From Elusimicrobiota bacterium (GTDB lineage: Bacteria; Elusimicrobiota; Elusimicrobia; UBA1565; UBA9628), in NCBI GenBank assembly GCA_044450965.1, contig JBIOJO010000013.1, positions 1,853-65,852 of the forward strand: a stretch of 64,000 bases of DNA. The letters run 5' to 3'. The notes under the pieces were generated by a model, which worked only from the letters and a program-made list of their open reading frames with translations, ran no database searches and had not been told where the DNA came from. Both the position numbers and the translations under genes were made by a program. This document shows, one piece after another, positions 5,331 through 45,281 of the stretch. Position 1 is the stretch's first letter, and the number at the start of each line of letters is the position of its first letter.

Positions 5331-5475
5331 GGGAGGGTTCCTTCCTTATTGATACCGGACTTCAATAACAGTATACCCTGTCGACGGGGCGGCGTCAAGG
5401 CGGGCGGATGTAATATCATCGGGGAGTCCGGCACGGATAAAGGACGGAAGATAATAGTTCTCCAGGAGACACGGC

Positions 5476-8467: not shown

Positions 8468-9547
<1,080 letters not shown>

Positions 9548-9631: not shown

Positions 9632-10117
9632 ATGACCACCGCCACCGCTACCCCCGAGACCACGCCGATCGCCGTCGGAGCCGTCGCCCCCGATTTCAAG
9701 CTGCCGGATTCGGAGAAGAAGGAGTGGACGCTCTCCGAGTTCAAGGGCAAGAAGCCCGTCGCCCTGTTCTTCTACCCGCTGGACTTCTCCCCGACCTGCT
9801 CCAAGGAGAACGTCTGCTTCTCCCAGGACCTGTCCCGCTACGAGCAGTTCGCGCAGGTGTTCGGCATCTCCGTGGACTCCGTCTGGGCGCACAAGGCCTA
9901 CAAGGCCGCCAACGGCCTGAAGCACACGCTCTTGGCCGACATGCACCGCTCCGCGATCAAGGCCTACGGCCTGTTCCTGCCCGCCGCGAACATCTCCCAG
10001 CGCGCCACCGTCCTGATCAACAAGGACGGCAAGGTGGCGTGGGTGAAGGTCGAGGCCGACATCACCAAGGAGCGCGACTACAAGGAGCTGGAAGCCCAGC
10101 TCGCGAAGCTCGCCTAA
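9632..10117 (+). CDS. peroxiredoxin (AhpC/TSA family, 1-Cys/Prx-type)
   Basis: FKGKKPVALFFYPLDFSPTCSKE peroxidatic Cys motif; AGGAGA RBS. Confidence 0.85.
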   Translation: MTTATATPETTPIAVGAVAPDFKLPDSEKKEWTLSEFKGKKPVALFFYPLDFSPTCSKENVCFSQDLSRYEQFAQVFGISVDSVWAHKAYKAANGLKHTLLADMHRSAIKAYGLFLPAANISQRATVLINKDGKVAWVKVEADITKERDYKELEAQLAKLA

Positions 10118-10142
10118 GAATCACGACGAGTCGCAAAGGAAA

Positions 10143-10179
10143 GCGCCCTCGGCCGAAAGGCCGGGGGCGCTTCGTTTTC
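10143..10179 (+). terminator. Rho-independent terminator after prx
   Basis: GCGCCCTCGGCC gaaa GGCCGGGGGCGC stem followed by TTCGTTTTCG. Confidence 0.55.
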
Positions 10180-10236
10180 GGCGATTGCGTTTTGCGGAGT
10201 TCACTGTTGTCAACAACAGTGGAATTGATGGAAACG

Positions 10237-10725
10237 CTATTTGCCCTGACTGATCGTCGGGCCCGGGGGGATTTTTCTCACGAGACCCCCGATGAAATCT
10301 TGGCTACAGGTAGAATCCTCGAAGCTTTCGCGTTTGAGGGTAAGACCGAATTTCATCCAATACACCGCAATCGAATCCTTGGTTGTGCATTGGCCGACTG
10401 GATTGGATCGATAGAAATCCAAGGTCCTATCCAATTTTTTGAGTTCTTCAGCGGTTATCCAAAGAGAAGATTGTCGATCAGTCCCGGAAATATGGATTTT
10501 ACGGAGATCAGCTCCGCTCATTTTGAGCGTATAGGATTGATCGTTGAAGCATCCTTTAGAATGGAAAATAATTTTTACCGTTTCATTCGTGGCCAGTTCG
10601 GCGACTGAGCGGCGGGCGTTCTTTGAATTCTGTGCGGAGGTCGTGATCGCTGTGCAGAAAAGGATAAGTCCGGAAAACCAAAGTGCCTTCTTGATCACCG
10701 CATGTACACGCTTAAGCGGTGCCAT
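10237..10725 (-). CDS. hypothetical secreted protein in a low-GC islet
   Basis: Signal-peptide-like N-terminus (MAPLKRVHAVIKKALWFSGLILFCTAITTSAQ); local GC far below the window average. Confidence 0.4.
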   Translation of the reverse strand: MAPLKRVHAVIKKALWFSGLILFCTAITTSAQNSKNARRSVAELATNETVKIIFHSKGCFNDQSYTLKMSGADLRKIHISGTDRQSSLWITAEELKKLDRTLDFYRSNPVGQCTTKDSIAVYWMKFGLTLKRESFEDSTCSQDFIGGLVRKIPPGPTISQGK

Positions 10726-10898
10726 TTCGTTTTGGAGTCTTCGGCTTCCATGCACAGGCGCGCCGCTTCCTTGAGCCGTTTGTCCAACTCAGCGAGGGTG
10801 CGGGCTTGCGTGTGGCAACCCTTCAAGGCGGGAACCGTGCCGACGAAAAGTCCGTCTTCGTCTCGTTCCACGACGACGGGAAACCGGTACTTCCTCAT
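10695..10898 (-). CDS. hicB: HicB-like antitoxin domain protein (UPF0150), orphan
   Basis: MRKYRFPVVVERDEDGLFVGTVPALKGCHTQARTLAE matches the HicB N-terminal fold; no HicA partner found. Confidence 0.45.
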   Translation of the reverse strand: MRKYRFPVVVERDEDGLFVGTVPALKGCHTQARTLAELDKRLKEAARLCMEAEDSKTKWHRLSVYMR

Positions 10899-11017
10899 GC
10901 CGATAGCATAGCAGGGGCTTCCGGGCGTCGCAAGGCGGGGTGCCATTTCCAGATATCTCCACTCAGTATCCGCGGCAGGGGGTGGAAAAGTTCCCATTCA
11001 GGGCCTATGCTTCAGGC

Positions 11018-11503
11018 ATGAAACCGAATTTCAAACGGCTCCTCTTCGCGGCGGTCTTCGTTTCCGGGTGCGCCTCCGCCCCGCATAAGCCCTTCGTCCA
11101 GCTTCCGCCGGCCCCGAACACGGCCGCCGTGTATTTCTTCCGCCCGTCGGAGATGACCGGCATGCTGCTCAAGCCGACTCTCTCCGCGAACGGCGCGGCG
11201 CTGGGCAAGCTCGGCAACGAGACCTGCGCCGTCGCGAACCTGCCGCCGGGTTCCATCGCGCTGCGCTCCCAGTGGGCGGGCATCCCGGGTTCGTCCCGCG
11301 ACGACTCCGCGACCGTGAACGCCGAGGCGGGGAAGAACTATTTCGTCCGCGTGCGCTATCACACCGCGAAGTCCCACGCGGTGGCTCCGGCGGGAGTTCT
11401 CTCGTTCGAGGACCGGACGGGCCTGGAGGAGACGACCGAGGCCGAGGCCATGCCCAACCTGGAACGCATGGGCGCCTGCGCGACGCTGGCCCCGGCGAAG
11501 TAG
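11018..11503 (+). CDS. hypothetical lipoprotein
   Basis: Lipobox LLFAAVFVSGCAS; beta-rich remainder. Confidence 0.45.
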   Translation: MKPNFKRLLFAAVFVSGCASAPHKPFVQLPPAPNTAAVYFFRPSEMTGMLLKPTLSANGAALGKLGNETCAVANLPPGSIALRSQWAGIPGSSRDDSATVNAEAGKNYFVRVRYHTAKSHAVAPAGVLSFEDRTGLEETTEAEAMPNLERMGACATLAPAK

Positions 11504-11506
11504 AGA

Positions 11507-12034
11507 CTAGCGCCGGATCAACTGGCCCAGCAGGCAGAGCTGCGCCAGCCCCACCAGCAGGCACGCCAGCCGGAACAGGCGCTGCTTGCGCGCGGCCACG
11601 TGCGCGCTCTCCGCGATCTGGCCGATGATGTCCTCGTAGTAGGCCGTCGCCGTGATCCCGCCGCCCAGGTACTTGTCGAAGCGGAAGATCAGGTCGCCGT
11701 GCGTGTATTTGGCCAGGTCGTCGGGGGAGATGAAGTTGTCGGCCGTTCCGGGCCGGTGCCGGGGGGGCTCCAGGAACGCCAGCCACTTGGGCAGGCGGTT
11801 CAGCGGCGCGAAGGCGAACAGCCCCAGCGGCAAGGCGATCGTCAGGGCCGTCGTCGCCAACGAACCGAGCGGGTCCGAGGCCGCCGTGATCTTCAGGAAC
11901 GCCAACTCGGCCGCCGCGAAGACGGTGAGCGCCCCGACCTTCGTCTCCGTCCACTCCACCGCGTGGCGCATGCTGTCCAGGATGATCCACAGACGCCGTT
12001 CCGGCTCCGGCGTCAGGTGGGCGGAGACGCTCAT
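11507..12034 (-). CDS. hypothetical membrane protein (3 TM) co-oriented immediately downstream of the desaturase
   Basis: Two adjacent TM helices near the N-terminus and one at the C-terminus; start lies 2 nt after the desaturase stop. Confidence 0.4.
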   Translation of the reverse strand: MSVSAHLTPEPERRLWIILDSMRHAVEWTETKVGALTVFAAAELAFLKITAASDPLGSLATTALTIALPLGLFAFAPLNRLPKWLAFLEPPRHRPGTADNFISPDDLAKYTHGDLIFRFDKYLGGGITATAYYEDIIGQIAESAHVAARKQRLFRLACLLVGLAQLCLLGQLIRR

Positions 12035-12035
12035 C

Positions 12036-13070
12036 CTAGGCGGCGCTGCACGACGGCGCGCAGCGGACCGGGTGCGCGTTGTCCACGGCGTCGAAACCCA
12101 CCAGCTTGCCGGTCTTCTCGTCCCACAGGGCGAGGGACATGCACGACAGGCTGTTGAACAAGGTCAGCTTGGTGACCTTCTGGAAGACCGGGTTCTCCTT
12201 CATGCACCGCTCCAGGTTGTAGTTCGGGATGCGGCTGTTGAGGTGGTGGATGTGGTGGAAGCCGATGTTGCCGCTGACCCACTGGAGGATCCGGGGCAGC
12301 TCGTAGTACGAGCAGCCCTTCAGGCTGGCCTCGGTCAGGTCCCAGTTCTTGTCGGGACTCCAGTAGGTGCCTTCGAACTGATGTTGGATGTAGAACAGCC
12401 AGACGCCGGCGGACGCCGTGATCAGCACCAAGGGGAGCTGCGCCCTCAGGAACGGCCACAGGCCCACCGTGTACGACGCGATGAGAAGGATGGAGGCCAA
12501 AACCACGTCGGTGAGCAGAATGCTCAGCCGCTCCTGCTTCCAGTCCGGCGGCACGATGACCGGGATCCGGTGGTTGATGACGAAGTGGTACGCCGGACCG
12601 ATGATGAACATCACCGGCGCGGAGCGGTACACCCGGTACTTCCACTGCCCCCAGCCCGAGAGCTTGTCGTACTCCTCGATGGTCAAGGTGTTGATGTCGC
12701 CGTACCCGCGCCGCTCCAGGTTGCCCGAGGTGGCGTGGTGAATGGCGTGCGTCTGCCGCCAGTAGCGGTACGGCGTCAAGGTGAACACCCCAAGCACCGC
12801 GCCGACCATGTCGTTGGCGCGCTGGGACTTGAAGAAGGAGCCGTGGCCGCAGTCGTGCTGGATGATGAACAGGCGCATCATGAAGGCCGCGCCGGGAAAG
12901 GCGAGCAGCAGGCTCAGCCAGCCGTGACCGCGGCTGTGCAGGAAGTGCATCAGCACGACGATCGCGAGATAAGGGAGCGCCGTGTTCGCCAGTTGGCCGA
13001 TGCTGGCGAGGAGATTGGGTTCCTTATATTTAGCAAGCAACACGTTGAGCGAGGCGATGTCTTTAATCAT
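12036..13070 (-). CDS. membrane fatty acid desaturase (acyl-lipid desaturase, DesA-like)
   Basis: Three histidine boxes: HDCGHGS, HAIHHATSGN, FHHIHH; multiple TM helices. Confidence 0.85.
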   Translation of the reverse strand: MIKDIASLNVLLAKYKEPNLLASIGQLANTALPYLAIVVLMHFLHSRGHGWLSLLLAFPGAAFMMRLFIIQHDCGHGSFFKSQRANDMVGAVLGVFTLTPYRYWRQTHAIHHATSGNLERRGYGDINTLTIEEYDKLSGWGQWKYRVYRSAPVMFIIGPAYHFVINHRIPVIVPPDWKQERLSILLTDVVLASILLIASYTVGLWPFLRAQLPLVLITASAGVWLFYIQHQFEGTYWSPDKNWDLTEASLKGCSYYELPRILQWVSGNIGFHHIHHLNSRIPNYNLERCMKENPVFQKVTKLTLFNSLSCMSLALWDEKTGKLVGFDAVDNAHPVRCAPSCSAA

Positions 13071-13276
13071 GCCTGAATAGGATGCTCGTATTGTCTCGAA
13101 AAATCAATAGATGGATGGGAAGTCCGCGACGCCGATTCGCCCACCCAGGAATCTATGTAACACGGCCGCGCCGCGGCTCCCGGGCCTTCGGACCTGGATG
13201 GAGGTGGGCCATAGTCGTCCGCCATTCGGGCCGAATGGTCCCCGACGGTCCGGCCGCTGGGGCTTATAATCGGTTC

Positions 13277-15550
13277 ATGAGATTGCTGCGGAGAGCGCTC
13301 GCGGTCCTTCTGTCCTACGCGATCGGAGTCCAGCCCGCCGTCGCGCAGTTTAATGTTGGGCGCGTCGCGGCGCCCTCCGTTTCCGGCGCGGGCTCGGCCG
13401 CCGCGGCGGTCAATTCCGGCGCGTCGGTCCAATCCGTCCAACTGACGACGTTGGGCGTCGTTCCCAATCTTTCCGTTGCCGCTTCCCTGAGCGCGCCGTC
13501 GGTCATGGCCGCCCCGTCCGTTTTCGCCGTGCCGGTCGCGGCCGTGCTTCCCGTGTCCGCCGTTTCCGCCGTCGCCGTCGCTCCCGCCTTGGCCCTCCGC
13601 GCCGTCCCCGCCGCCCCGACGGCGACGCAGCCCTCGAAGCCGGAAAAGATTTCCGTCACGCAGCATGTCGCGCAAATCTCCGTCGCAGCCCAAAACGCCG
13701 TACATGACATCGGCCGCGCCTCCGGCGCGGAATCCCGCGAGAAGGCCGACGCCCAGTTCACCGCGCTCCTTGAAAGCCGCCGCATCGCCGCGTCGGACGG
13801 GATCGAGACGCGCGTCCCGTCGGCGCTGTCCCGCGCGGACGCGCCGCGCGCCTATCTCGACGCGCCGACGCCCGCGGCGCCGAGCGGAGGGGAAAAAGCC
13901 GGCGTCCCCGCGCCGAAGGCCCCGAAGACCGGGATCTTCACCGTGTTCCGCGATCCGGTCCGCAACAGCGCGTTCTGGCGCTACGTCTCCGGCTACGCGA
14001 TCTTCCTGTTCGGCTACGAGATGTACGTGGTCGGCCTGCCCTACCTGATCTCGTCGATGACCACGAACTCCCTCAAGGAGCACAAGGACGCCCGCGTCGG
14101 AAACGACGAGGCGGTCAAGGAGCTGATCCGCACCAACCGCTCCCTGTCGCGCATCGCCCACTGGTTCGCCCAGGGCGTCAGCTACATCGCGATTCCTCTT
14201 TTCACCCGCAATCAGGAGACGGACGGTCCGAAGAAGTGGCTGGTGAAGTCCATGCTGATACGCGCCGGCGTTCTGGCCGCGGTTCCGGTCGTGTTCTTCG
14301 CCACGGGCGTGCTGGGACTGCACGCGGCCATGTGGGTGCTGTTCGGCTTGATCGCCGCGCAGGCGTTCTTCCAGGGAATCTCCGTGACGGCCGAGGGCGC
14401 CGCGACCACCCGCCTGCTGGGCGACAAGAGCGTCACCACCGACGAGCGCACCAAGGCCAACTCGATTCTGACCGTGCTGGCGGCCGTCATCGCCATCATC
14501 GGCCCGCTGGTCGCTGGGCAGATCGCCATGATCGGCCCCGTGATGGGCAAGAGCGGCGTCGGCGGCGCGGTCATCTACGGCATCTACGCCGGCGCCATCG
14601 CCGTGACCGGCCTGATCTACGCCACCATCAAGATGTTCGGCGGTCAGAGCGAGTCCACCAAGCTGGCCATCGCCCGCGGCGAGAAGCCGGACGCGGCCGC
14701 GCCGAAGACCCTCAAGGGCGTGATGAAGGAGCTGTGGACCTCCATCAAGGACGGCACCCGGATCGTTTTCAAGGACCGCCTTTTGCGCACCATGCTGCTG
14801 ATGTCCATGGTCAGCTCCCTGTTCTCCGACCCGCTGGTGTTCAACGTGCTGCCCGAATACATCGAGGGCCTGGTCGCCAAGAGCCCCGGCTCCGTCGGCG
14901 CCATCATGGGCATTCCCGGAATCGGCTGGTTCCTGAAGACTTTGACCGCCACGCCGATGGGCAACTTCGCGCTGATGATGGTCATGGCCAGCGTGGGCAG
15001 CATCGTGGCCACCTTGCTGATGAAGCCGCTGACCAAGCTGTTCCACAAATTCGGCTTCAAGACCGAGGAAGGCCTCACCGTCCCGTTCTACTTCCTGGCG
15101 GCCTTGGAAGCGCCCCTCTTCTTCCTGATGATCAACACGCCCACCATGCTGGGCGCCATCGCGCTGTACGGCCTGCAGTCCTTGGTCACCGGCTTCATCG
15201 GCATCGCCATCCAGGGTCTCTACCAGAAGAACCTGGGCAACCAGAAGGACGGCGACGTGAACAAGATCCTGGCGGCCGACTCCCTGCTGGGCATCGGCGC
15301 CGCCATCGTGTCCACCTTCGCCTACGGCTTCCTGCTCAAGAACATCCCCATCGCCACGTCCTTGATGATCGCCGCCATCGCCACCGGCGTGGTCGCCTTG
15401 ATCCGCCTGGCGGCGCCGTTCCTGTCGTTCACGAAGGATCAGCGCAAGCCGCCGTCCGATCCGCCGGCGCCCAAGGTGCCGTCCGCCAACGCCCTGCCGT
15501 CCACGGGCGTCCACAACGGCGCGAACTCCGTCCAATCCACGAACCTCTGA
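13277..15550 (+). CDS. MFS-type transporter with an N-terminal signal peptide and a roughly 200-aa Ala/Pro/Ser/Val-rich low-complexity extension
   Basis: 12-14 predicted TM helices after aa ~220 with an MFS-like loop arrangement; start chosen at the MRLLRRALAVLLSYA signal-like Met rather than the track start. Confidence 0.45.
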   Translation: MRLLRRALAVLLSYAIGVQPAVAQFNVGRVAAPSVSGAGSAAAAVNSGASVQSVQLTTLGVVPNLSVAASLSAPSVMAAPSVFAVPVAAVLPVSAVSAVAVAPALALRAVPAAPTATQPSKPEKISVTQHVAQISVAAQNAVHDIGRASGAESREKADAQFTALLESRRIAASDGIETRVPSALSRADAPRAYLDAPTPAAPSGGEKAGVPAPKAPKTGIFTVFRDPVRNSAFWRYVSGYAIFLFGYEMYVVGLPYLISSMTTNSLKEHKDARVGNDEAVKELIRTNRSLSRIAHWFAQGVSYIAIPLFTRNQETDGPKKWLVKSMLIRAGVLAAVPVVFFATGVLGLHAAMWVLFGLIAAQAFFQGISVTAEGAATTRLLGDKSVTTDERTKANSILTVLAAVIAIIGPLVAGQIAMIGPVMGKSGVGGAVIYGIYAGAIAVTGLIYATIKMFGGQSESTKLAIARGEKPDAAAPKTLKGVMKELWTSIKDGTRIVFKDRLLRTMLLMSMVSSLFSDPLVFNVLPEYIEGLVAKSPGSVGAIMGIPGIGWFLKTLTATPMGNFALMMVMASVGSIVATLLMKPLTKLFHKFGFKTEEGLTVPFYFLAALEAPLFFLMINTPTMLGAIALYGLQSLVTGFIGIAIQGLYQKNLGNQKDGDVNKILAADSLLGIGAAIVSTFAYGFLLKNIPIATSLMIAAIATGVVALIRLAAPFLSFTKDQRKPPSDPPAPKVPSANALPSTGVHNGANSVQSTNL

Positions 15551-15590
15551 CGCGCGCCGCGTTGGACCGGCGGATTGTTAGAATGAGGTC

Positions 15591-16109
15591 ATGAACCGAT
15601 TCCTCGTTCTCCTGTCGGCCGCCGTCCTGGCCGCTTCCGCCGCGGCCGCCGCCTCGCCGGGCGCCGCCGCGGATTATGCCGGCTTCGTCTCGGCGTGGCG
15701 TCAGGACTGCACCAACGGCTGCGGCGTGCCCGCGGGCGCCGGGCCCGGCCAGGCGGCGGCGTTCCGTTTGGACGTTCCGATGAACCCGGGAGAGGCGCGC
15801 ACGACGAAATTCGAGCGCGAGTTCGTTTTGGCCCCGACCGGAGAGCGGATCAAGGCGGCCTTCACCGTTTACGCCGTGTGTCCCCACGGCGCCAAGCCCG
15901 AGCCAGGCGGCGACTCCTGCCCGTCGCGCTACGTCCAAATCCAGGCCGTCCTGTCGGGCGACGCCCGCGCCTTCTGCGCCGCGTCCTTGAACGACGCCGA
16001 CGCCCGGCCGTTCCCCGTCATGATGTGCGCCGGGGAGAACCTGCGCCGCCCCGGCGAAAGGCTGGGGATCAGCTTGTCGCGCCAGGCCGTCGCGGCGCTC
16101 GCTCCTTAG
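15591..16109 (+). CDS. hypothetical secreted Cys-containing protein
   Basis: Ala-rich signal peptide; 6 Cys. Confidence 0.4.
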   Translation: MNRFLVLLSAAVLAASAAAAASPGAAADYAGFVSAWRQDCTNGCGVPAGAGPGQAAAFRLDVPMNPGEARTTKFEREFVLAPTGERIKAAFTVYAVCPHGAKPEPGGDSCPSRYVQIQAVLSGDARAFCAASLNDADARPFPVMMCAGENLRRPGERLGISLSRQAVAALAP

Positions 16110-16606
16110 CGGAGGAAGATCAACGGCGCCCAGATCGGCGCCGTGGCGACGCCCAGAACGAGCGCGACCGCGACCGGATAAACCACCAGCGCCGCGGGCA
16201 CCTCCCACACGCGGTTCCAGCAGGAACGCAGCGGGCCGGCCTCGTGCTCCTCGTAGCTGGGAACGCGGAACAGCGGACGGCAGCGGCCGGTGGGGGCCGA
16301 GACCTCGTAGTCGGTCAGATCCCAGTCCTCGCCGACCCGGCGGGCTTTTCCCAACGCCGGAATTTCGGAGCCGGCGCACAGTTGGCGCGGCAATGTCTCC
16401 AGCTTCTTGTTTTGCGCCATCTCCACCGGCAGGCAGGTGATGTCCAGCACGGTCCCGTCGCGCTCGACGCGCAAAGTCCGCCCTGTGTCGGAGGTGTAGT
16501 AGCGGGCGTACGAATCCTCGAGGAAGTAGGACCGGGCGGGGCCGGGCGTCGCGCAGGCGCTCAGCAGCGCGGCCAGGCCCGCGGTCCGCGCGGCGCGGAG
16601 GTTCAC
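16106..16606 (-). CDS. hypothetical lipoprotein with a C-terminal TM anchor
   Basis: Lipobox LLSACAT; C-terminal hydrophobic helix. Confidence 0.4.
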   Translation of the reverse strand: MNLRAARTAGLAALLSACATPGPARSYFLEDSYARYYTSDTGRTLRVERDGTVLDITCLPVEMAQNKKLETLPRQLCAGSEIPALGKARRVGEDWDLTDYEVSAPTGRCRPLFRVPSYEEHEAGPLRSCWNRVWEVPAALVVYPVAVALVLGVATAPIWAPLIFLR

Positions 16607-37325: not shown

Positions 37326-37886
37326 GTGTTGTTGAGTGCTGTATTCTACATTGCGACTATTGTCATTTCAGGCTGCGCGAAGGCTCCGCCGCCGCTGCGC
37401 GCGCTTCCGGACTTTTCCCTGACCGCCGTCACCGTGGACGGGACCTCTCCGCTGGACCTGCGCGCGCTGCGCGGCCGCGCGTGGATCGCCGATTTCGTGT
37501 ACACGAGCTGCGCCGGACCGTGCCCCATGCTCAGCGCGAACATGGCGTCGCTTCAAAAGCGCCTGCCGAAATCCGTCGGGCTTCTGTCGTTCACCGTGGA
37601 TCCGGACCACGATTCGCCGGAAGTGCTGACCGTCTACGCGCGCAAGTTCGCCGCCGATCCGCAGAGGTGGTTTTTCGTCACGGGCGACAAGCCCGTGCTG
37701 GTGAAATTATTCCGGGACGGCTTCCAGATCGCCGTCGCCGAAAGCGCGGACGCGCCCCAAGGCCAGAACGTCGCGCACACGACCAAGTTCGTCCTGATCG
37801 ACGGCGACGGACGCATCCGGGGCTATTACGACGGCGACGACGCCGCCTCGCTGGACAAGCTCGCGGCCGACTCGTCGCGTCTTTAG
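37326..37886 (+). CDS. SCO1/SenC copper chaperone (thioredoxin fold), lipoprotein
   Basis: CxxxCP motif YTSCAGPCPM; lipobox VISGCAK. Confidence 0.8.
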   Translation: MLLSAVFYIATIVISGCAKAPPPLRALPDFSLTAVTVDGTSPLDLRALRGRAWIADFVYTSCAGPCPMLSANMASLQKRLPKSVGLLSFTVDPDHDSPEVLTVYARKFAADPQRWFFVTGDKPVLVKLFRDGFQIAVAESADAPQGQNVAHTTKFVLIDGDGRIRGYYDGDDAASLDKLAADSSRL

Positions 37887-38299
37887 GCCCGCTTCGAGCG
37901 CAGGTGGAATAAAAACGGCGCCAGCAGGACGGCGCCCAGCCAGGTGTGCACGAACGCCGCTCCTGATCGCGTCGTCTCGTCGACGGCGTAAAACAACACG
38001 GGGACGGTCAGGAAAAGAATCCCGAAGCAGGCGAGCAAAGTCACGCCGCTTTTCTTCTTTTTGCGCTGCTTGAGGCCGGGCTCCACGTGAACGCTCCAAA
38101 GATAGCCGAAGAGAACCAAGAAGATTAAACCGGCGATCGAGTGCGCGTGCAGGACGGTCGGCTTCCAAGGCGAGGGCTGGGGGCCGTAGCCTTCGTCGGT
38201 CATCATCCATTTCGCCAGCGCCCAAACGACGAGGCCGGAGGCGTACAGAAACGCCGAAGTCCACAGCAGGACGGATTTAAAACGGCGATCCAGCTTCAT
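37883..38299 (-). CDS. 4-TM His-rich membrane protein, candidate di-heme b-type cytochrome (DUF4405-like)
   Basis: Four TM helices each bearing a conserved-position His (LHAHSIAG, WSVHVE, FVHTWLG, LFHLRS). Confidence 0.35.
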   Translation of the reverse strand: MKLDRRFKSVLLWTSAFLYASGLVVWALAKWMMTDEGYGPQPSPWKPTVLHAHSIAGLIFLVLFGYLWSVHVEPGLKQRKKKKSGVTLLACFGILFLTVPVLFYAVDETTRSGAAFVHTWLGAVLLAPFLFHLRSKRA

Positions 38300-38808
38300 T
38301 TCGCGGGAGCCTCGTTTATAACGCGATGAACGGCGAGGACGCGCCTCACCCCGCGCGTGACGGCCTCGGACGTGATGCTGGCGCCGGTGATGTTGCGCAG
38401 TCCGCGGCGGACCAGGAGCTCGTCGTTCAGCGGCTTGCCCGCGAACTGGCCCAGCCATTTCTTCGGGGCCTGGTATTCGTCGGGCTCCGCGAAGGACAGG
38501 ATCTCCACGAAGCGCACGGTCGCGTCCGGATCCACGGCCACCATGAAGGTCTCGTTCATCGTCCGGACCTTGTGGGACTCGAAGTAGGCCGTGCCGACGA
38601 CGCCCTTCGTGGACGTCCCGACGTAGTAGGTCCAGACCTTGGAGTCGAGCTTCGATCCCGAGTCCTTCTCCACGGCGGAGGCCTGGGCATCGGTCAGGAA
38701 CGCGGTGCGGCGTTCGACCCTCACGCCTTCGGGGAAGGCCAAAGCCAACGCCTCCTTCTGCGTGAGCAGGACCTTCGCCGCGGCGCTCGCGGGGACGAAC
38801 GCCGTCAC
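38296..38808 (-). CDS. FMN-binding domain protein (RnfG/NqrC-like FMN_bind), substrate for ApbE flavinylation
   Basis: RNITGASITSEAV matches the covalent-FMN attachment motif D/N-x-x-[ST]-G-A-[ST]; N-terminal signal/anchor; start codon uncertain (GTG). Confidence 0.55.
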   Translation of the reverse strand: MTAFVPASAAAKVLLTQKEALALAFPEGVRVERRTAFLTDAQASAVEKDSGSKLDSKVWTYYVGTSTKGVVGTAYFESHKVRTMNETFMVAVDPDATVRFVEILSFAEPDEYQAPKKWLGQFAGKPLNDELLVRRGLRNITGASITSEAVTRGVRRVLAVHRVINEAPAK

Positions 38809-38816
38809 GAACAGCC

Positions 38817-40133
38817 CTAAAATATATATCCGACGCCGAGGTTCCACTGGTTCACTCCCGTATGCGCCTGGTTGAGCTTCCACTGCTGGTCCAGCTTGAG
38901 CACGACTTGAGGGATCGGCTTGTACGTCAGGCCGAGCGTGTATTCGACGCGGCTGTTCGCGGGGTCCTTCGCGTCGCCGGCCGGCACCCGCCACTGCGTA
39001 TCATAGCGTTCGTACCGGAAGAAGGGCGCGAGCGATTGGCCCTTCGGGTTCGGAACCAAGGTCAAGACGTCGTACGCCGCCTCGGCGTACCCGCCGAACA
39101 GGCGGCGGCCGATGGACTGGTTCCCGGCGAAGCCCTGAGCGACGTCCAGATTCGCCGCGTTGCCTATCGTTCCCTCCGCGTAAAGCCCGCGCACGGATGC
39201 GCCCCGCCATTGCGCCTCGGCGTGCGCTTCCCACAGCGTCACCGGCACGCTCGCGGAGGAATTGCCTCGGTCGGCGCGGCCCAGGTACAGTCCCGCTCCG
39301 GCCTTCACGCCCGGAGCCGCGGCCCAATCGACCCGCGACGCCCAGGCCAAGTCGTCGGCCGGGCTGTTCGCGCCTTCGGTGCTGGAGCCGCGGAGGCCGT
39401 TCGCGGCGGTGAAGCCGTCGGACGCGGGCGCCGCCGTTTTGGCGGCGCTCAGGGCCGCGAGCGCGTAGGTCCGGTACGAGACCGGGCCCCATTCTCCGAA
39501 GACCCCCGCGCCGTTCTCATGCCATGTCGACGGGATGATCACGGTTTCCACGCCGGGGCGGTTGACCCCGTGGAACGCGGTCGGCTCGTGCACCTCGTTG
39601 ACGAGGCCGAGGGGGACGATCACGTGGCCGACGCGGGCGCCGAATTCCTTCCAAGGCCGGAACTCGATGTACGCCTGCTCCACGCCGATCTCTCCCCGGT
39701 TCTCGTCGGCCTGCCCGGTTCCCGCGTGCTCGACCTCGAACTCGGAGTTGAACAGGATCCAGTCGTTGAACTTATAGCCGGTGTAGAGGACGAAACGCCG
39801 CAGATCGAAGGTCTTCTTGAGGCCGGAGGCGTCGCCGTTCTGCCGGCTCCGCGACGGCGCAAGATAGACGAACTCTCCGTAGCCGCCGAACGAAATCTTG
39901 TCGGGGCGGACGCCGTAAATCTTCGACGCCGACGGCCCGAAGCCGGGTTGGGACGAGGGGGCGGGGGCTTCGGCCGCGTCGCCCAGCTTGAGCGTCTCGA
40001 TTTCCTGGGTCAGGGCGTCGACCTTCCGCTCCAGTTCGGTCAATTGGGACCTTTGCGAGTCGTCGGCGCGGGCGAACGGGGCGGCGGTCAGCGGAACGGC
40101 GGCGGTTAAGACGGCGGCGAAAAGGCGCTTCAT
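38817..40133 (-). CDS. outer-membrane beta-barrel protein (porin-like) with an N-terminal coiled coil
   Basis: Signal peptide, alternating amphipathic beta strands, C-terminal ...GVGYIF aromatic terminus. Confidence 0.5.
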   Translation of the reverse strand: MKRLFAAVLTAAVPLTAAPFARADDSQRSQLTELERKVDALTQEIETLKLGDAAEAPAPSSQPGFGPSASKIYGVRPDKISFGGYGEFVYLAPSRSRQNGDASGLKKTFDLRRFVLYTGYKFNDWILFNSEFEVEHAGTGQADENRGEIGVEQAYIEFRPWKEFGARVGHVIVPLGLVNEVHEPTAFHGVNRPGVETVIIPSTWHENGAGVFGEWGPVSYRTYALAALSAAKTAAPASDGFTAANGLRGSSTEGANSPADDLAWASRVDWAAAPGVKAGAGLYLGRADRGNSSASVPVTLWEAHAEAQWRGASVRGLYAEGTIGNAANLDVAQGFAGNQSIGRRLFGGYAEAAYDVLTLVPNPKGQSLAPFFRYERYDTQWRVPAGDAKDPANSRVEYTLGLTYKPIPQVVLKLDQQWKLNQAHTGVNQWNLGVGYIF

Positions 40134-40984
40134 GGATGGCTTCCTTTTATAGCGGAGGTGGAGACGGCGGTGAAGAAGGATCGTCCCGGGAAGGACGGGG
40201 GCGTGCGGCCCAGGACGTAGAGGGCGGTGGACCAGGCGTCGGCGTCGGTCGCGCTCGGGAGAACCGCGGTGGCCTGGACGGCGCGGCGTACCGGGAGGCC
40301 GTCGAACGGTGAGGCGATGTGTCCGGGCCGCTCGGAATCGCCGGAGGTGGAAACCGAGGCGTTCCGCACGGTCAGCGGCTCGTCCCGGCCGGGCAGCGCG
40401 ACCGACCAATCGCCGCCGTCTTCCGCCGTTCCGAGCGCCATTATTTGTCCGCCGAAGTTGATGAAGGCGTTGGCGATGCCTTTCGCGCGCAGAACCTCGC
40501 CGGCGCGGTCCAGCGCCCAGCCCTTTCCGATCCCGCCGAAGTCCAGGCCCATGCCGGACTGAGGAAGCTCGATGGTTCCGGCCGCCGGGTCCAGCCGCAC
40601 CTTCGACCAGCCGATCAGGGGCAAGGCGGCGGGCCCGCGCCGGAGGACGGGCAGGATCGCCGGATCGAAGGCGCCGCCGGTCTCCCGGGCCAGGCGCAGG
40701 GCGGCTTCGGTCTGCGCGTACAGGCCGGGGGAGGCGCGGAACGGCCCTCGCCCGGCGGAAGCGTTCAGCGCGTTGAGCTCGCTTTCCTTTTTATAGAGAC
40801 TCAAGACGCGGTCCCAATGGTCGATCTCGTCGAACGCCGCGGCGACCGCGGCGCCGGCGCCGTCGCCCCGGGCTTCGATCGAGCAGAAGGTGCCCATCAG
40901 CCAGCGCGTGCGGGCGATTTTGCTCTCCGCGGCGTCCGCTCCGGCCGCGCCGAGCGTCAGCGCCGACATGACCAGGGCGGCCAT
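40130..40984 (-). CDS. apbE: FAD:protein FMN transferase, ApbE family
   Basis: ApbE signature LDFGGIGKGWALD and overall ApbE length; signal peptide. Confidence 0.8.
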   Translation of the reverse strand: MAALVMSALTLGAAGADAAESKIARTRWLMGTFCSIEARGDGAGAAVAAAFDEIDHWDRVLSLYKKESELNALNASAGRGPFRASPGLYAQTEAALRLARETGGAFDPAILPVLRRGPAALPLIGWSKVRLDPAAGTIELPQSGMGLDFGGIGKGWALDRAGEVLRAKGIANAFINFGGQIMALGTAEDGGDWSVALPGRDEPLTVRNASVSTSGDSERPGHIASPFDGLPVRRAVQATAVLPSATDADAWSTALYVLGRTPPSFPGRSFFTAVSTSAIKGSHP

Positions 40985-41057
40985 TTTCTTATTGATAAGC
41001 GATTTCAACAAGGAAAAGATAGCACACCTCTTATTGAAATACAATATCAATAAGAAA

Positions 41058-41094
41058 ACGGGCAAAAAGAAGGCCCGCCTCGCGGCGGGCCTTC
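41058..41094 (-). terminator. Rho-independent terminator after the dsbA-like gene
   Basis: GAAGGCCCGCC tcgc GGCGGGCCTTC followed on the minus strand by TTTTTGCCCGTTTTCTT. Confidence 0.6.
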
Positions 41095-41106
41095 GGCATG
41101 GGCGCT

Positions 41107-41877
41107 TTAGACGCCCAGCTTCGTGATGATCTTGTCGAACTCCTCGGGCGGGTAGGCGCCGCGCAGCGGAACGCCGTTGATCAGGAAGCCCGGCGTGCCG
41201 GAGAAGCCGAACGAGTGGGCTTCCTTCATGTCGGCCTCGATCTTCGCCTTCACGGCGTCGCTGGTCCGGTCGGCGTCGGCCTTCTTGACGTCCAGGCCCA
41301 GGTCCTTGACGACCTTGCGGAAGTACTCGTCGCCGATCTGGCCCTGGTTCTGGAACATCTTGTCCTGGAAGATCCAGGCCTTGTCGGGGCTCTGGATCGC
41401 CACGGCCTCGAACCACTGGGCGGCCGGCATGGCCAGGTGATGGATCGCGACCAGAGGCAGGTTCTTGTAGATGAAGCGCATCTTCGGACCGTACTTCTGG
41501 CGGACCTGCTCGAGGACCTGGTAGCCGCGGGCGCAATAGGGGCACTCGAAGTCGGAGTACTCGACGACCGTGATCGGCGCGTTCTTGTCGCCGCGGATCC
41601 GCGTCTTGTCGTCGATGACGGGCTTGTAGGGATTCTTGAAGGCGTTCTCGAGGTCCTTCTTCTCCTGCTCCTCCGCTTCCTTCTGCTTCTTCATCTGGTA
41701 GTCGGCCTGGGCGTCCACGACGACCTCGAAGAACGCGGCCTTGTCGGCCTTCTTCAGGGCGGCGAGCACCAGGTCGGGGTTCGCTTCAAGAGCTTTCTTG
41801 AGTTCGTCGCGGGTGATCGCGGCGAAAGACGGGGAGGCGATCAGCGCGCAAAGGACGGCGGCGACGATTCGATTCAT
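41107..41877 (-). CDS. DsbA-family thiol:disulfide oxidoreductase
   Basis: Signal peptide; active site CPYC; thioredoxin fold length. Confidence 0.8.
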   Translation of the reverse strand: MNRIVAAVLCALIASPSFAAITRDELKKALEANPDLVLAALKKADKAAFFEVVVDAQADYQMKKQKEAEEQEKKDLENAFKNPYKPVIDDKTRIRGDKNAPITVVEYSDFECPYCARGYQVLEQVRQKYGPKMRFIYKNLPLVAIHHLAMPAAQWFEAVAIQSPDKAWIFQDKMFQNQGQIGDEYFRKVVKDLGLDVKKADADRTSDAVKAKIEADMKEAHSFGFSGTPGFLINGVPLRGAYPPEEFDKIITKLGV

Positions 41878-42380
41878 GAGGGTCTCCTGTTCAGAAGGCT
41901 GAGAATATCATTTTCCACGGCGCGCGCGTCCAGCGGGCCCACGTAGCGCCGCACGATTCCTCCGTCCGGGGCGATCAGGAACGTCGTCGGCAGCATGTGG
42001 ATCGCGTAGGCGTCCATCGTCTTGCGGTCGGCGTAGAGGATCGGGTATTTGAGACCGTATTTCGCGGCGAAAGGGGGGACGACCTTGGCCGCGTCGTCGT
42101 CCACGCTCACGGAGAGCATCTCGAAGCGGTCGCCCAGGTCCGAACGGCGCAGCTCCAGGAGCGCGGGGATCTCGTCCTTGCAGGAGTCGCACCAGGTGGC
42201 CCAGAAATTGAGGAGAACGACGCGCCCTTTCCGGGAGGACAAGGTGATCGTCTTGCCTTCGGGGGACGTCAGGGCGAAATCCGTCGCGAGGCCGGTGGAG
42301 TCCCCGCCGCGGCACGCGGACAGGGCGCCGACCGCCAGCGCGGCCAGGACGAAGAGGCGGGATCGGGAGAAGATGGTCAT
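41874..42380 (-). CDS. TlpA/ResA-like redoxin lipoprotein
   Basis: Lipobox ALSACRG; WATWCDSCK CxxC motif. Confidence 0.75.
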   Translation of the reverse strand: MTIFSRSRLFVLAALAVGALSACRGGDSTGLATDFALTSPEGKTITLSSRKGRVVLLNFWATWCDSCKDEIPALLELRRSDLGDRFEMLSVSVDDDAAKVVPPFAAKYGLKYPILYADRKTMDAYAIHMLPTTFLIAPDGGIVRRYVGPLDARAVENDILSLLNRRPS

Positions 42381-42448: not shown

Positions 42449-43090
42449 TTAGCACCCGCAGGGAGTCTTCGGACCCATGGTATTATCCCTCCTATTTTCG
42501 GCTTGATGCTGCTCCAGAACCGAGCGGGCGATTCCGCCGACCCGCTTGAAAATCTTCGAGTCCCTCTGGGAGCGCGTCAGCATGATCGCTCCCTCGTACA
42601 TCGCGACGATGGACTCCGCGGCCGCCTTCGAGTCCAGCGTCGGTCGGAAATATCCCGACTTCTTGAGCCGTTCCAGGCATTCCGCGATGCTGGACGCCCA
42701 TTCCGCGAAGAAGCCGCCGACCCGCTCGCGGAAGACCTCGTCCTTGTCGCTCATCTCCAGCGCGATGTTGCCGACGAAGCAGCCCGCCTTGCAGCCGATG
42801 CCCTGGAAGAACTTCGCGCCCTCGTCGAACATCGCCTCGACGGCCTGCTCCGGCGCCGCGTGGCCGCACAAAGGCTCCACCCGGGTCCGGAATTCGTTGA
42901 TCTTGTAGTCCAGCACGGCCAACGCCAGCTGCGACTTCGAGCCGTAGTGATGAAAGAGGTTCGCCTTCGTCATCCCGCTGGCCTTGGCGATCTCGTCCAT
43001 GCAGGCGGCGCCGTATCCTTTGAGATGGATGACGTGCTCCGCTTGCTGGAGGATGCGCTCTCGGACCGCGAGGTCTGGCTTTCGTCCCAT
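42449..43090 (-). CDS. TetR/AcrR family transcriptional regulator
   Basis: N-terminal HTH GYGAACMDEIAKASGMTKANLFHHYGSK. Confidence 0.75.
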   Translation of the reverse strand: MGRKPDLAVRERILQQAEHVIHLKGYGAACMDEIAKASGMTKANLFHHYGSKSQLALAVLDYKINEFRTRVEPLCGHAAPEQAVEAMFDEGAKFFQGIGCKAGCFVGNIALEMSDKDEVFRERVGGFFAEWASSIAECLERLKKSGYFRPTLDSKAAAESIVAMYEGAIMLTRSQRDSKIFKRVGGIARSVLEQHQAENRRDNTMGPKTPCGC

Positions 43091-43152
43091 AATTGATTGA
43101 CTGACCGTCCGGTCAAAGAATAACACGAATCGGAAAGTTTGTCAAGCCTTCT

Positions 43153-44241
43153 TTATCCGATCGGCGTCACGCCGATGCCGCGGCGGACGGGGGCCAGGTC
43201 GTAGACGCCGCCGCGCGCGATTCTCAGTCCGCGCGTCGGGTCGCGTTTGAGCCACAGCGGCGTGTCCAGGTCCACCACGCCGAACCCGCCGACGCCCGCC
43301 GCGAAATGGGCGGCGCAGGCCATCGCCAGGGAGGTTTCGATCATGCCCCCGATCATCAGGCCCAATCCCCCGGCGCGGGCGATCAGCGCGCAGTCCCAGG
43401 CCTCGAGTATCCCCATCTTCATCAGCTTCAGATTGAGCACGGAAACGGCTCCGCTCCGCGTCAGCCCCAGCGCGTCGGCGCGGCCGCGCACCGACTCGTC
43501 GGCCGCGACGGGGACCCCGCCCAAACGGGCGACGCGGGCCAGGCCGTCCCAATCGTCCGCGGCGGCCGGCTGCTCGAACTGGGCGATGCGCAGGCCGCGT
43601 TTCCTCAATAGACGGAGCAGCTGGAGGGATTCCCGCGGCCCGTATCCCTGATTGGCGTCGAGCATCAAGGTGAAGCGCGGGTCCACCGCCGCCACCGCCG
43701 CCACGCGCGCCGCGTCCGACTCTGGGTCCTTTCCGACCTTGATCTTGACCGTGCGCACGCCGAACGCGCGGATGCGCCGGGCGGCCGCCGCCGCGGCCTC
43801 CGGAGGCAGGATGGTGACGGTGACGTCGCTGGTCACGCGGGTTTCCGCGCCGCCGAACAGCGCGCGCAGCGGAAGACCCGCGCGGCGCGTCCAGGCGTCG
43901 AGCAGGGCCATGCCCAGCGCGGCGCGCGCGGCGCCGGCGCCCTTCGGCAGCGCGTCCTCCAGTTCGACCAGGCGCGGACGCCAGGCCGCGCCGTCCCGGC
44001 CCAGCCACGCGCGTCCGGCCCGGCGGATCGCGGTCAGCGCGCCGGCGGCCGTTTCGCCGTTGAAGGCGGTCAGGGGGGACGCCTCGCCGTGGCCCACGGT
44101 GCCGTCCTTGAGCGTCAGGCGCACGAAAACTCCGGCGTGCTCGTGGGCCGTTCCGCCCGCGATCTCGAAGGATTCGGCCAGCTCGGAAATGAACGGCCGC
44201 GCCGCGACGTCGGCGATCTCGGCCCCGCCGGCCCGGCTCAT
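43153..44241 (-). CDS. enolase-superfamily enzyme (mandelate racemase/muconate lactonizing family, dipeptide epimerase-like)
   Basis: KIKVG, LMLDANQGY, EQP metal-binding/catalytic motifs. Confidence 0.7.
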   Translation of the reverse strand: MSRAGGAEIADVAARPFISELAESFEIAGGTAHEHAGVFVRLTLKDGTVGHGEASPLTAFNGETAAGALTAIRRAGRAWLGRDGAAWRPRLVELEDALPKGAGAARAALGMALLDAWTRRAGLPLRALFGGAETRVTSDVTVTILPPEAAAAAARRIRAFGVRTVKIKVGKDPESDAARVAAVAAVDPRFTLMLDANQGYGPRESLQLLRLLRKRGLRIAQFEQPAAADDWDGLARVARLGGVPVAADESVRGRADALGLTRSGAVSVLNLKLMKMGILEAWDCALIARAGGLGLMIGGMIETSLAMACAAHFAAGVGGFGVVDLDTPLWLKRDPTRGLRIARGGVYDLAPVRRGIGVTPIG

Positions 44242-45281
44242 GGAAGCTGAGTCACGGTGCAGGCGTCGGCGAAGGAGAAGCCGTAGACCCCGCCGCCCTT
44301 GCTTCCGGGAATCACGTCCAGCTCGTGCGGCTTGTCGCCGGCGTCTCGCGCCAGATCGTACAGGCGCTCGCTGTCGGCCAGGACGAAGCTGCGGCCGTCT
44401 TCGTCGTAGCGGATGTCCCGGCCCGCGATGCCCTCGTACAGCCACTGCTGATCGCGTTTGATGAAGAATTTCGTCTTCTGGCCCGGCGCCGGGGCCAGGA
44501 CCGCCATCGCCTGCGGCGCGACGTAGACGACGCGCACGAGGGCGCTTTGGTCGTCGTTGCTCTTCGCCAGGCGCAGGCCGTCCGGTTCGGTGTCCCACTT
44601 TCCCAGAATGGAGAGCTCTCCCTGGCGGGAATCCACGAGCAGGAGCTTCTTGGCGGGGTCCATCTCCGCCTTCAGCATGCGCGTCTTGGCGCGCGCGCCC
44701 ATGTCGACGTCCGGTGTCGCGTGGCCGCACTCGGTGCGCTGCGGCTCGGGCGAATCGACAGGCGGGGGGAGGGGATCGGTCGTCAAATCGTACAAGGCGT
44801 CGCGGATTTCGCCCTCGAATTCGGCGTATCCGCCTTCGCCCAGATGGTCGAAGACGATCTTGCCCTTGCGGTCCAGCAGGTACAGCGCGGGCCAGCCGTC
44901 GTTCCCGTAGGCCTTCCAAAGCTTCCGGTCGTTGTCCAGGATCACGGGGAAGTCGATCCCGATGCGCTTGAGCTGGGTCCGGCCCCAGACCGCGTCCTTT
45001 TGGATCTCAAGATCCGGAGTCACCACGCCGATGACCATCAGCTGCCTCAACGCGTAGCGGTCGAACCAGGCTTCCAACGTGGGCAGAAGGCGGATCGAAT
45101 GCAGTCCGGTCGGATTCAAGAAGACGACCAGGACGATCTTGCGGTCGCGCATCATGGCCAAGGACAGGGGCTTGGCGTTCACCCAGGCGGCGCCCGGCGG
45201 AAACTCGGGGGCGGGAGGCGTGATGGGACGCATGGCGGCGGCGGGCGCGCACAGCAGAACGGCGAGCGCGAGAGCCTTCAC
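44238..45281 (-). CDS. secreted protein with an N-terminal thioredoxin-like (redoxin) fold lacking CxxC, plus a C-terminal domain
   Basis: Signal peptide; KIVLVVFLNPTGLHS...GWPALYLLDRKGKIV resembles a redoxin fold. Confidence 0.35.
   Translation of the reverse strand: MKALALAVLLCAPAAAMRPITPPAPEFPPGAAWVNAKPLSLAMMRDRKIVLVVFLNPTGLHSIRLLPTLEAWFDRYALRQLMVIGVVTPDLEIQKDAVWGRTQLKRIGIDFPVILDNDRKLWKAYGNDGWPALYLLDRKGKIVFDHLGEGGYAEFEGEIRDALYDLTTDPLPPPVDSPEPQRTECGHATPDVDMGARAKTRMLKAEMDPAKKLLLVDSRQGELSILGKWDTEPDGLRLAKSNDDQSALVRVVYVAPQAMAVLAPAPGQKTKFFIKRDQQWLYEGIAGRDIRYDEDGRSFVLADSERLYDLARDAGDKPHELDVIPGSKGGGVYGFSFADACTVTQLP

Follow-up and report, generated by a model that had tools for sequence, protein, structure and literature searches.

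A conserved ApbE, FMN_bind and putative di-heme cytochrome b operon with its own porin in Elusimicrobiota

INTRODUCTION

Flavinylation by ApbE is now regarded as a third general route of extracytoplasmic electron transfer, beside c-type cytochromes and thioredoxin-like proteins, and most predicted flavinylated systems are without a known substrate. ApbE-associated gene clusters have been catalogued by Meheust et al. (2021, eLife; PMC8238504) with five classes of membrane partner (NapH-like, MsrQ-like, PepSY-like, DsbD and Nqr/Rnf-like), several of which are tied to iron assimilation. Iron limitation strongly induces the Caulobacter cluster of PepSY-like, DUF2271, DUF4198 and ApbE genes (CC_3059-3063), as does mutation of fur (PMC3751524). 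More recently, Huang, Meheust, Barquera and Light (2024, mSystems; PMC11334425) described DUF4405 proteins, which have six transmembrane (TM) helices, four histidines and heme b, are usually paired with Flavodoxin_4 and were related by these authors to FezC, a cytochrome of ferrosomes; that heme b is bound has been demonstrated for FezC and for one DUF4405 protein. In this report, we analyze a locus at positions 37,326 to 42,380 of a 64,000-nucleotide stretch from an Elusimicrobiota bacterium (assembly GCA_044450965.1, contig JBIOJO010000013.1; G+C about 66%), this whole stretch being referred to as the window. At its center is an operon encoding ApbE, an outer-membrane porin, an FMN_bind flavoprotein and a four-helix membrane protein (the 4TM protein) that is presumed to be a di-heme cytochrome b. 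An earlier note, made from the sequence alone, had described an envelope redox cluster here, and its claims were then followed up computationally.

RESULTS

Organization and conservation of the four-gene operon

The operon lies on the minus strand and consists of apbE (40130-40984 or 40130-41011, depending on the start codon), the porin gene (38817-40133, 438 amino acids), the FMN_bind gene (38296-38847, GTG start, 183 amino acids) and the 4TM gene (37883-38299, 138 amino acids). ATGA overlaps join apbE to the porin gene and the FMN_bind gene to the 4TM gene, and the porin and FMN_bind genes overlap by 31 nucleotides (nt), an overlap that is kept in relatives. The tight minus-strand operon proposed by the earlier note was recovered in this form, and all eight genes that it had described in the region were found at or close to where it had put them.

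ApbE, an FAD:protein FMN (flavin mononucleotide) transferase, is assigned by a PF02424 match of 173.4 bits (cutoff 25.6). Translation may start at ATG 40984 or at TTG 41011/41008, and the TTG start gives the better signal peptide; export of the enzyme is directly supported. Equally well supported is the identity of its substrate, an RnfG/NqrC-like periplasmic FMN_bind protein with a conserved [S/T]GA[S/T] site (PF04205, 28.2 bits, cutoff 22), which carries a signal peptide or anchor at its N-terminus. The flavinylation motif pointed out from the sequence, N-I-T154-G-A-S157, is indeed present (Ser codon 38379-38377) and Ser157 is the predicted flavinylated residue; the strict motif was found in 83 of 88 FMN_bind homologues, and the terminal Ser/Thr aligned in 87 of the 88.

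Relatives within Elusimicrobiota were retrieved either via the 4TM gene (56-79% identity) or via the porin gene. The order apbE-porin-FMN_bind-4TM is complete in six contigs of the former set (L001, L002, L004 and L006-L008), and three further contigs (L003, L005 and L009) end near the 4TM gene and hold only its 3' part. The porin-retrieved relatives (54-58% porin identity), namely CP096137 (L095), a complete genome of 3.8 Mb, and L096, a contig of 52 kb, both keep apbE-porin-FMN_bind. A search for co-occurrence of the genes across genomes, suggested together with the original description, therefore gave a positive answer: the four-gene order is kept in the 4TM-retrieved Elusimicrobiota, and three of the genes are syntenic across many other phyla. 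Because this synteny is conserved, chance adjacency of the four genes is excluded.

Histidine pairs in the 4TM protein

The 4TM protein has five histidines (51, 53, 71, 118 and 132), all invariant among 24 close relatives; across 71 diverse members and 82 members from the cassettes described below, H53, H71, H118 and H132 are the only histidines that are invariant (100%), and G22, G65, G85, Y104 and G122 are also invariant across the family. An AlphaFold2 (AF2) model (predicted local distance difference test score, pLDDT, 74) has helices at residues 5-31, 46-72, 78-104 and 108-137, which places H53 and H71 on TM2 and H118 and H132 on TM4, with no histidine on TM1 or TM3. Positive charge is found at the N-terminus, in the TM2-3 loop (KQRKKKKS) and at the C-terminus. 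With these segments placed on the cytoplasmic side, the model directly supports a position of H53 and H118 near the periplasmic face and of H71 and H132 near the cytoplasmic face. In cytochrome b of the bc1 and b6f complexes, helices B and D each contribute two histidines, which ligate two hemes b. The 4TM geometry is presumed to be that of a di-heme b cytochrome, and from its sequence the protein would bind heme b. The 14-residue spacing of the TM4 histidines matches that of the TM4 ligands in FdnI/CybB-type proteins. The earlier note had assigned one histidine to each helix, and this has to be corrected to two on TM2 and two on TM4; the idea of a cytochrome b is strengthened by the correction, because the histidines pair up on two helices as they do in cytochrome b.

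An exhaustive HMMER search with the 4TM alignment returned 1020 cluster representatives at E<=1e-3, of which 245 reach E<=1e-10, and nearly all of the best 150 of the 1020 listed are 110-215 amino acids long; a word-indexed search returned Elusimicrobiota relatives only, at 56% identity or more. Among the 71 diverse members, 29 match Ni_hydr_CYTB (PF01292; best 3.7e-7) and 18 match DUF4405 (PF14358; best 4.2e-7) at E<0.01, and the orthologue of Bradyrhizobium centrosematis reaches 33.8 bits with Ni_hydr_CYTB, over the cutoff of 30.1. By its sequence profile, the family is close to cytochrome b561 and DUF4405, mostly under the curated Pfam thresholds.

The outer-membrane porin

The second gene of the operon encodes a 16-strand porin, an assignment that is directly supported. 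It carries a signal peptide and, near the N-terminus, a helix at residues 25-50, and its last residues are GYIF. Its match to Porin_O_P (PF07396) of 19.6 bits is just under the cutoff of 20.9, and the L004 orthologue scores 23.0 bits; among 1122 homologues in a large protein collection, many of the top matches listed carry PF07396, and some homologues are named OprO/OprP-family by NCBI. An AF2 model built on 40 homologues (mean pLDDT 80) has 16 strands, and Foldseek aligned it with the trimeric 16-strand porins OmpU, OmpM1, OmpC/F, OprP and OprO at E-values of 1e-12 to 1e-10. A His/Glu-rich loop (residues 173-207) is strongly conserved in the alignment.

Two other roles for the barrel were considered and rejected. 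A flavinylated barrel of the DUF3570 type does not fit, the porin having neither an [S/T]GA[S/T] motif nor a DUF3570 match, and a conduit holding the flavoprotein inside the barrel, in the manner of MtrA in MtrB, was dropped in view of the strand number, which is at most 16 in these barrels. As a separate observation, a 712-amino-acid metagenomic protein (P0425) combines ApbE and Porin_O_P domains; it is either a true fusion or the product of a sequencing error that lets translation read through the ATGA overlap.

A related cassette in other phyla

Distant 4TM members (28-43% identity) always occur in a cassette DUF6662-FMN_bind-ApbE-4TM, in neighborhoods that are otherwise different. These loci were collected by exact-protein look-up and by a DUF6662 query against one genome per GTDB species. 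The query returned 80 loci, distributed over Oligoflexia, Alpha-, Beta- and Gammaproteobacteria, Verrucomicrobiota, Acidobacteriota, Binatia and one Chloroflexota metagenome-assembled genome; the proteobacterial carriers comprise Bradyrhizobium, Nitrospirillum, Variovorax, Dyella, Sphingomonas, Novosphingobium, Ralstonia syzygii and Methylophilaceae. When the loci were scanned with hidden Markov models (HMMs) built from both cassette types, all four genes were found in 66 of the 70 evaluable loci (those with enough downstream sequence), in the order DUF6662-FMN_bind-ApbE-4TM in all but L030; of the remaining four, two are without apbE and two have DUF6662 alone. Clustering of the open reading frames within 4.5 kb of the 80 cassettes detected no other neighbor family in more than seven loci. 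Since no other neighbor recurs, the conserved unit is self-contained and consists of an outer-membrane protein, FMN_bind, ApbE and the 4TM protein.

The DUF6662 protein (about 300 amino acids) has a signal peptide, a strand-like alternation and a weak match to a Treponema outer-membrane barrel family, and is presumed from these features to be an outer-membrane protein. Homology to the window porin was tried and rejected (hhalign probability 1.7%). The outer-membrane member, judged by these comparisons, is thus recruited from two unrelated families, DUF6662 and, in Elusimicrobiota, OprP-like porins.

Several variants of the cassette deserve mention. Five Methylophilaceae/Methylotenera loci (L028, L044, L046, L051 and L082) have the arrangement DUF6662-FMN_bind-4TM with no apbE inside the cassette, so that either the gene for ApbE must lie at another place or the flavin must be bound in another way. 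The DUF6662 genes form a tandem pair in L018, L033, L034, L035 and L069. In four aligned cassette DUF6662 proteins (L011-L014, for example L013 5696-6601), a His-rich C-terminal tail with the consensus GGEHxHAH suggests metal binding. Finally, L011 has a run of genes (9906-16432), starting 1.5 kb beyond the cytochrome gene on its downstream side, for Pfam families fitting menaquinone biosynthesis (chorismate-binding, TPP enzyme, hydrolase, ECH, UbiA and OSBS); this may be accidental or may point to the quinol donor.

Candidate operators and Fur-type boxes

Two copies of an inverted repeat were found upstream of apbE. Operator 1 (41031-41053), an exact TTATTGA-N9-TCAATAA, shares positions with the -35 region of the promoter of apbE, and operator 2 (40989-41011), which departs from the pattern at one base, extends into the region of the apbE start. 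Spaced 42-43 base pairs (bp) apart, the two flank a candidate -10 hexamer, TATCTT preceded by TG (41016-41021, minus strand), which was identified by eye and not called by the promoter scan; TA..AT-like hexamers stand at the same place in relatives. Seven of the Elusimicrobiota loci extend across the region upstream of apbE, and all seven have both operators, including those with other upstream genes; the inner nine bases of the operators are variable.

At three or fewer mismatches, the 64-kb window contains four matches to the operator, against 0.06 expected. A three-mismatch match lies at 13088, and a third, exact copy (5346-5368) is located between two divergent genes: an erpA/iscA-like gene for an Fe-S carrier (5007-5330, minus strand, PF01521), which starts 16 bp from it, and a secreted FecR-domain gene (5476-6132, plus strand), which starts 108 bp from it. 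An Mrp/NBP35-type Fe-S assembly ATPase is encoded near this pair (8468-9547). The outer TGA-N9-TCA of the operator is the frame of Fur-family 7-1-7 boxes, and from this pattern the operator probably belongs to a Fur-family regulator that would sense iron or zinc; no Fur-family regulator gene is encoded in the window. A metagenome scan for the operator gave mostly AT-rich chance matches. A G+C content of 55% or more was found for 8 of the 120 matches listed; seven of these eight were examined, and no cassette gene lay within 2.5 kb of any of them.

In the DUF6662 cassettes, sites of the Fur type itself were enriched. Of 79 upstream regions, 28 match the Fur consensus at 13/19 or better, where shuffles matched for composition gave 2.8 on average and 8 at most; at 14/19 or better, the numbers are 15 for the upstream regions and 0.42 for the shuffles. 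Many of these boxes are perfect 7-1-7 palindromes (TGAGAATnATTCTCA, TGCGAATnATTCGCA, GATAATCATTATC-type) located 25-55 bp before the first gene, and the widespread cassette is probably iron-regulated. The Bradyrhizobium loci share a conserved TTTAGATCGATTCCGAA element, which resembles an Irr ICE motif at 11 of 14 bases.

Flanking genes

The complete gene order on the minus strand is tetR, tlpA, dsbA, apbE, porin, FMN_bind and 4TM. The TetR-family regulator (42449-43090, assigned by Pfam) has its own promoter and an intrinsic terminator with an 18-pair stem (42440-42401). A TlpA/ResA-like redoxin with a WCDSC motif (41874-42380, minus strand; AhpC-TSA and Redoxin, with ResA/TlpA NCBIfam matches) and a DsbA-like thioredoxin-fold protein with a CPYC motif (41107-41877, minus strand; PF13462 and PF01323, DsbA/Thioredoxin_4) are encoded by genes that overlap by ATGA and are translationally coupled. 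One terminator serves both, an 11-pair stem with a T tract (41094-41069, minus strand) that is conserved in relatives; it divides tlpA-dsbA from the apbE operon, and dsbA and apbE are separated by a 95-bp AT-rich gap. On the plus strand, a SCO1/SenC copper chaperone (37326-37886; PF02630, 75.9 bits, CAGPC motif) is convergent with the 4TM gene, tail to tail with a 4-nt overlap, and divergent from nrdA.

Several statements about these neighbors had to be revised. The operon had been called divergent from SCO1, to which it is in fact convergent, and the dsbA, tlpA and tetR genes had each been given a terminator, which applies to tetR, the other two sharing one (two strong terminators only). The inclusion of SCO1, DsbA, TlpA and TetR in a wider envelope redox cluster was not borne out, as they form separate transcription units and are absent from the 66 four-gene cassettes of other phyla. 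Upstream tetR-redoxin-dsbA and a convergent downstream SCO1 are kept in most of the 4TM-retrieved relatives, SCO1 is again convergent in CP096137, L003 has no SCO1 downstream of the module, and in L096 the upstream genes are unrelated and DsbB-DsbA and a convergent redoxin follow the module. Thiol-redox genes recur near the module in this phylum only. The SCO1/DsbA/TlpA/TetR flank is Elusimicrobiota-specific synteny, and its genes are treated here as neighbors rather than as demonstrated functional members.

Further observations concern the surroundings. A perfect palindrome, TGACCG-GA-CGGTCA (43102-43115), is located downstream of the predicted promoter of tetR and ahead of its start codon; it is likely the auto-operator of TetR and is unrelated to the apbE operator. 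At 44238-45281, the window encodes a secreted 347-amino-acid Thioredoxin_10-type protein (annotated from the L001 orthologue), in which no CxxC was seen by eye; a block upstream of tetR with Thioredoxin_10-type, MR_MLE enolase-family and Transglut_core2 genes is conserved in relatives. In one lineage (L004 3633-5006 and L005 1717-3090), a 457-amino-acid gene with a faint HEAT-repeat match stands between the 4TM gene and SCO1.

DISCUSSION

Proposed function and alternatives

The proposal that the operon forms an extracytoplasmic flavin/heme electron-transfer module is supported by the conserved flavinylation motif and the synteny, and the operon probably carries electrons from the inner membrane to the periplasmic flavoprotein. 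Our reading of the whole, to which we give a probability of about 0.5, is a four-gene quinol-heme b-FMN module with a ferric acceptor entering via the porin and a repressor acting at the two operators. ApbE would attach FMN to Ser157 of the FMN_bind protein, and the 4TM cytochrome would draw electrons from the quinol pool or a cytoplasmic donor; these electrons would cross the membrane via two hemes b to the covalent FMN, and the flavoprotein would reduce a small solute that enters the periplasm through the dedicated porin, the acceptor being most likely ferric iron or a small ferric chelate. The module would then serve as an assimilatory metal reductase that does not depend on TonB, comparable to ferric reductases of the cytochrome b561 type and to the PepSY-like/DUF2271/ApbE clusters under Fur control, and its expression would be controlled by a repressor that binds the two TTATTGA-N9-TCAATAA copies over the promoter. 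An outer-membrane protein of its own accompanies the cassette in every case, which suggests that a defined substrate is imported. We infer the direction of electron flow, the porin as entry route and ferric iron as acceptor; iron is suggested by the regulation, by the operator common to the Fe-S carrier gene, by the precedents and by one ferritin neighbor, a ferritin-like gene (PF00210, 64.7 bits) located in L095 17 nt downstream of the membrane-protein gene and in the same direction.

A number of results weigh against this proposal. The window 4TM protein scores 19.2 bits with DUF4405 (cutoff 26.7) and 16.7 bits with Ni_hydr_CYTB (cutoff 30.1); the assignment to a Pfam family recommended in the earlier note succeeded for the barrel, now a porin, and for the b561/DUF4405 matches of the 4TM family, the window protein itself remaining below both cutoffs. 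The 4TM family profile found no solved relative among the sequences of the Protein Data Bank (PDB), fold searches with the pLDDT-74 model were non-specific, and hhalign of the family with an approximate E. coli CybB sequence gave no alignment of the histidines to heme ligands. The fourth gene of the porin-retrieved loci L095 (10873-11791) and L096 (10834-11343) encodes a different 4TM protein, PF27139 Aq_1264_TM, which has no match to the 4TM family HMM, no four-His pattern and no histidine on the last helix. As this protein replaces the 4TM protein, electron entry may not always use the present cytochrome. (In Aq_1264_TM proteins, a SHAH...H pattern is confined to one helix.) In addition, the operator agrees with the E. 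coli Fur consensus at 12/19 at best and is not a canonical Fur box, and in two unrelated contigs from the high-G+C matches its 14-base pattern also precedes a Fur-family regulator-ZnuA-ABC ATPase operon of the zur-znuA type (L154) and a His-rich COG0523 GTPase gene (L105), so that the metal sensed could be zinc.

A zinc-limitation response, with the operator serving as a Zur box and zinc scarcity inducing the operon for a purpose other than iron reduction, would account for these last two loci. They probably belong to unrelated taxa, however, and the pattern fixes only the outer bases that all Fur-family boxes have in common; zinc is not redox-active, the proteobacterial cassettes have Fur-type rather than Zur-type boxes, and the third operator in the window precedes an Fe-S carrier gene, all of which make this explanation quite unlikely. 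The flanking genes invite a different explanation, namely that the module maintains envelope thiols or copper by exchanging electrons with the neighboring DsbA, TlpA-like redoxin and SCO1; it might, for example, re-oxidize DsbA in place of DsbB or supply reductant for TlpA/SCO1-dependent assembly of copper centers. The order TetR-redoxin-DsbA-[module]-SCO1 persists in relatives whose porin is as little as 58% identical, and even the rearranged L096 has DsbB-DsbA and a redoxin adjoining the module. Synteny in a single lineage is nevertheless weak evidence alone, strong terminators split the units, SCO1 is convergent and is missing downstream of the module in L003, and none of the 66 cassettes of other phyla is accompanied by SCO1, DsbA, TlpA or TetR; we therefore regard an exchange of this kind as unlikely.

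Flavin-based extracellular electron transfer (EET) would employ the same parts to another end, with free flavins or shuttles passing the porin and reducing insoluble acceptors for respiration or iron mobilization. The parts parallel the Listeria FmnB/PplA system (PMC8238504, PMC9973259), a dedicated outer-membrane channel is co-transcribed, and iron limitation induces riboflavin synthesis in Caulobacter (PMC3751524). Yet the operon is without an NADH dehydrogenase, a quinone-synthesis gene or a flavin exporter, its one FMN domain does not make a multi-flavin wire, and a barrel of at most 16 strands has no room for a protein and would admit small shuttles only, which renders such a role improbable. 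The current might also run the other way: a periplasmic reductant (superoxide, Fe(II) or another arriving via the porin) would be oxidized, and FMN and the hemes would pass its electrons to the quinone pool, much as E. coli cytochrome b561 CybB acts with superoxide. We give this direction little credence.

The locus gains a wider interest as the entry to a compact cassette present in cultured Bradyrhizobium, Variovorax, Nitrospirillum, Dyella and Ralstonia and in uncultured phyla, a cassette that domain models largely miss, since the Pfam cutoffs are not reached by the 4TM protein. The outer-membrane partner and the Fur-type boxes together provide a hypothesis, a porin-fed periplasmic ferric reductase, which, if true, would amount to a new TonB-independent route of bacterial iron uptake and offer a minimal model of a di-heme cytochrome b. 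More tentatively, and with considerable doubt, the cassettes may represent a widespread, envelope-spanning and TonB-independent pathway for the reductive acquisition of iron or another metal, made up of a dedicated outer-membrane channel, a covalently flavinylated reductase in the periplasm, its own ApbE and a minimal 4TM di-heme cytochrome b, under metalloregulator control and with exchangeable partners, the outer-membrane one having been recruited at least twice and the membrane one giving way to Aq_1264_TM in other Elusimicrobiota.

Comparison with known systems

The arrangement had been said to match no known Rnf, Nqr, NosR or EET system, and this holds: at E-values up to 0.1, the eight proteins of the region include no defining membrane component, that is, no RnfD/NqrB (PF03116), NapH (PF12801), MsrQ (PF01794), PepSY_TM (PF03929/PF16357) or DsbD (PF02683). 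The FMN_bind protein resembles RnfG/NqrC in its length of about 180 amino acids, its N-terminal anchor or signal, its FMN_bind domain and its [S/T]GA[S/T] flavinylation motif; unlike in Rnf/Nqr, no RnfD/NqrB, RnfA/E or other subunits are encoded nearby, and the NCBIfam rnfG models give 18 bits, against cutoffs of 102-230.

With the cytochrome b561 family (PF01292: CybB, HyaC, FdnI), the 4TM protein shares four helices and two TM4 histidines 14 residues apart. The other two heme ligands of FdnI/CybB-type proteins come from TM1 and TM2, whereas the other two histidines of the window protein are both on TM2, 18 residues apart.

The general kind of system is already known, since ApbE-associated DUF4405-like heme b cytochromes were published in 2024 (PMC11334425). 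In the literature searched, we found no mention of DUF6662 or Aq_1264_TM and no description of an ApbE/FMN_bind/cytochrome b561 operon with an outer-membrane partner; as far as searched, the 4TM subfamily, its outer-membrane partner and its Fur-type sites are thus undescribed. Like the DUF4405 cytochromes, the 4TM protein has four conserved intramembrane histidines, a gene beside apbE and a flavinylation substrate, a weak match to the profile and a proposed role in transmembrane electron transfer to a flavinylated extracytosolic protein. Unlike them, it has four helices in 138 amino acids, pairs with FMN_bind and stays below the Pfam cutoff; the DUF4405 set (PMC11334425) comes from Firmicutes and Proteobacteria, typically with Flavodoxin_4 and a flavin transporter, and an outer-membrane barrel partner is not mentioned for it.

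The PepSY-like/DUF2271/DUF4198/ApbE clusters likewise combine ApbE, a flavinylated periplasmic protein and a membrane protein with His-ligated heme; they are Fur-regulated, have been proposed to be assimilatory ferric reductases and are in some cases linked to an outer-membrane transporter. They differ in their PepSY_TM membrane protein, in their DUF2271 substrate and, where they have an outer-membrane partner, in its being a TonB-dependent receptor and not a porin. In the DUF6662 cassette, by comparison, FMN_bind, ApbE and the 4TM protein are homologous to those of the window operon (E-values of 1e-24 to 1e-79 with the HMMs of both types), and the two are equally compact, each with a presumed outer-membrane protein, which comes first in the cassette; they are distinguished by their gene order, by the family of the outer-membrane protein and by Fur-type boxes in the cassette instead of the Elusimicrobiota operator.

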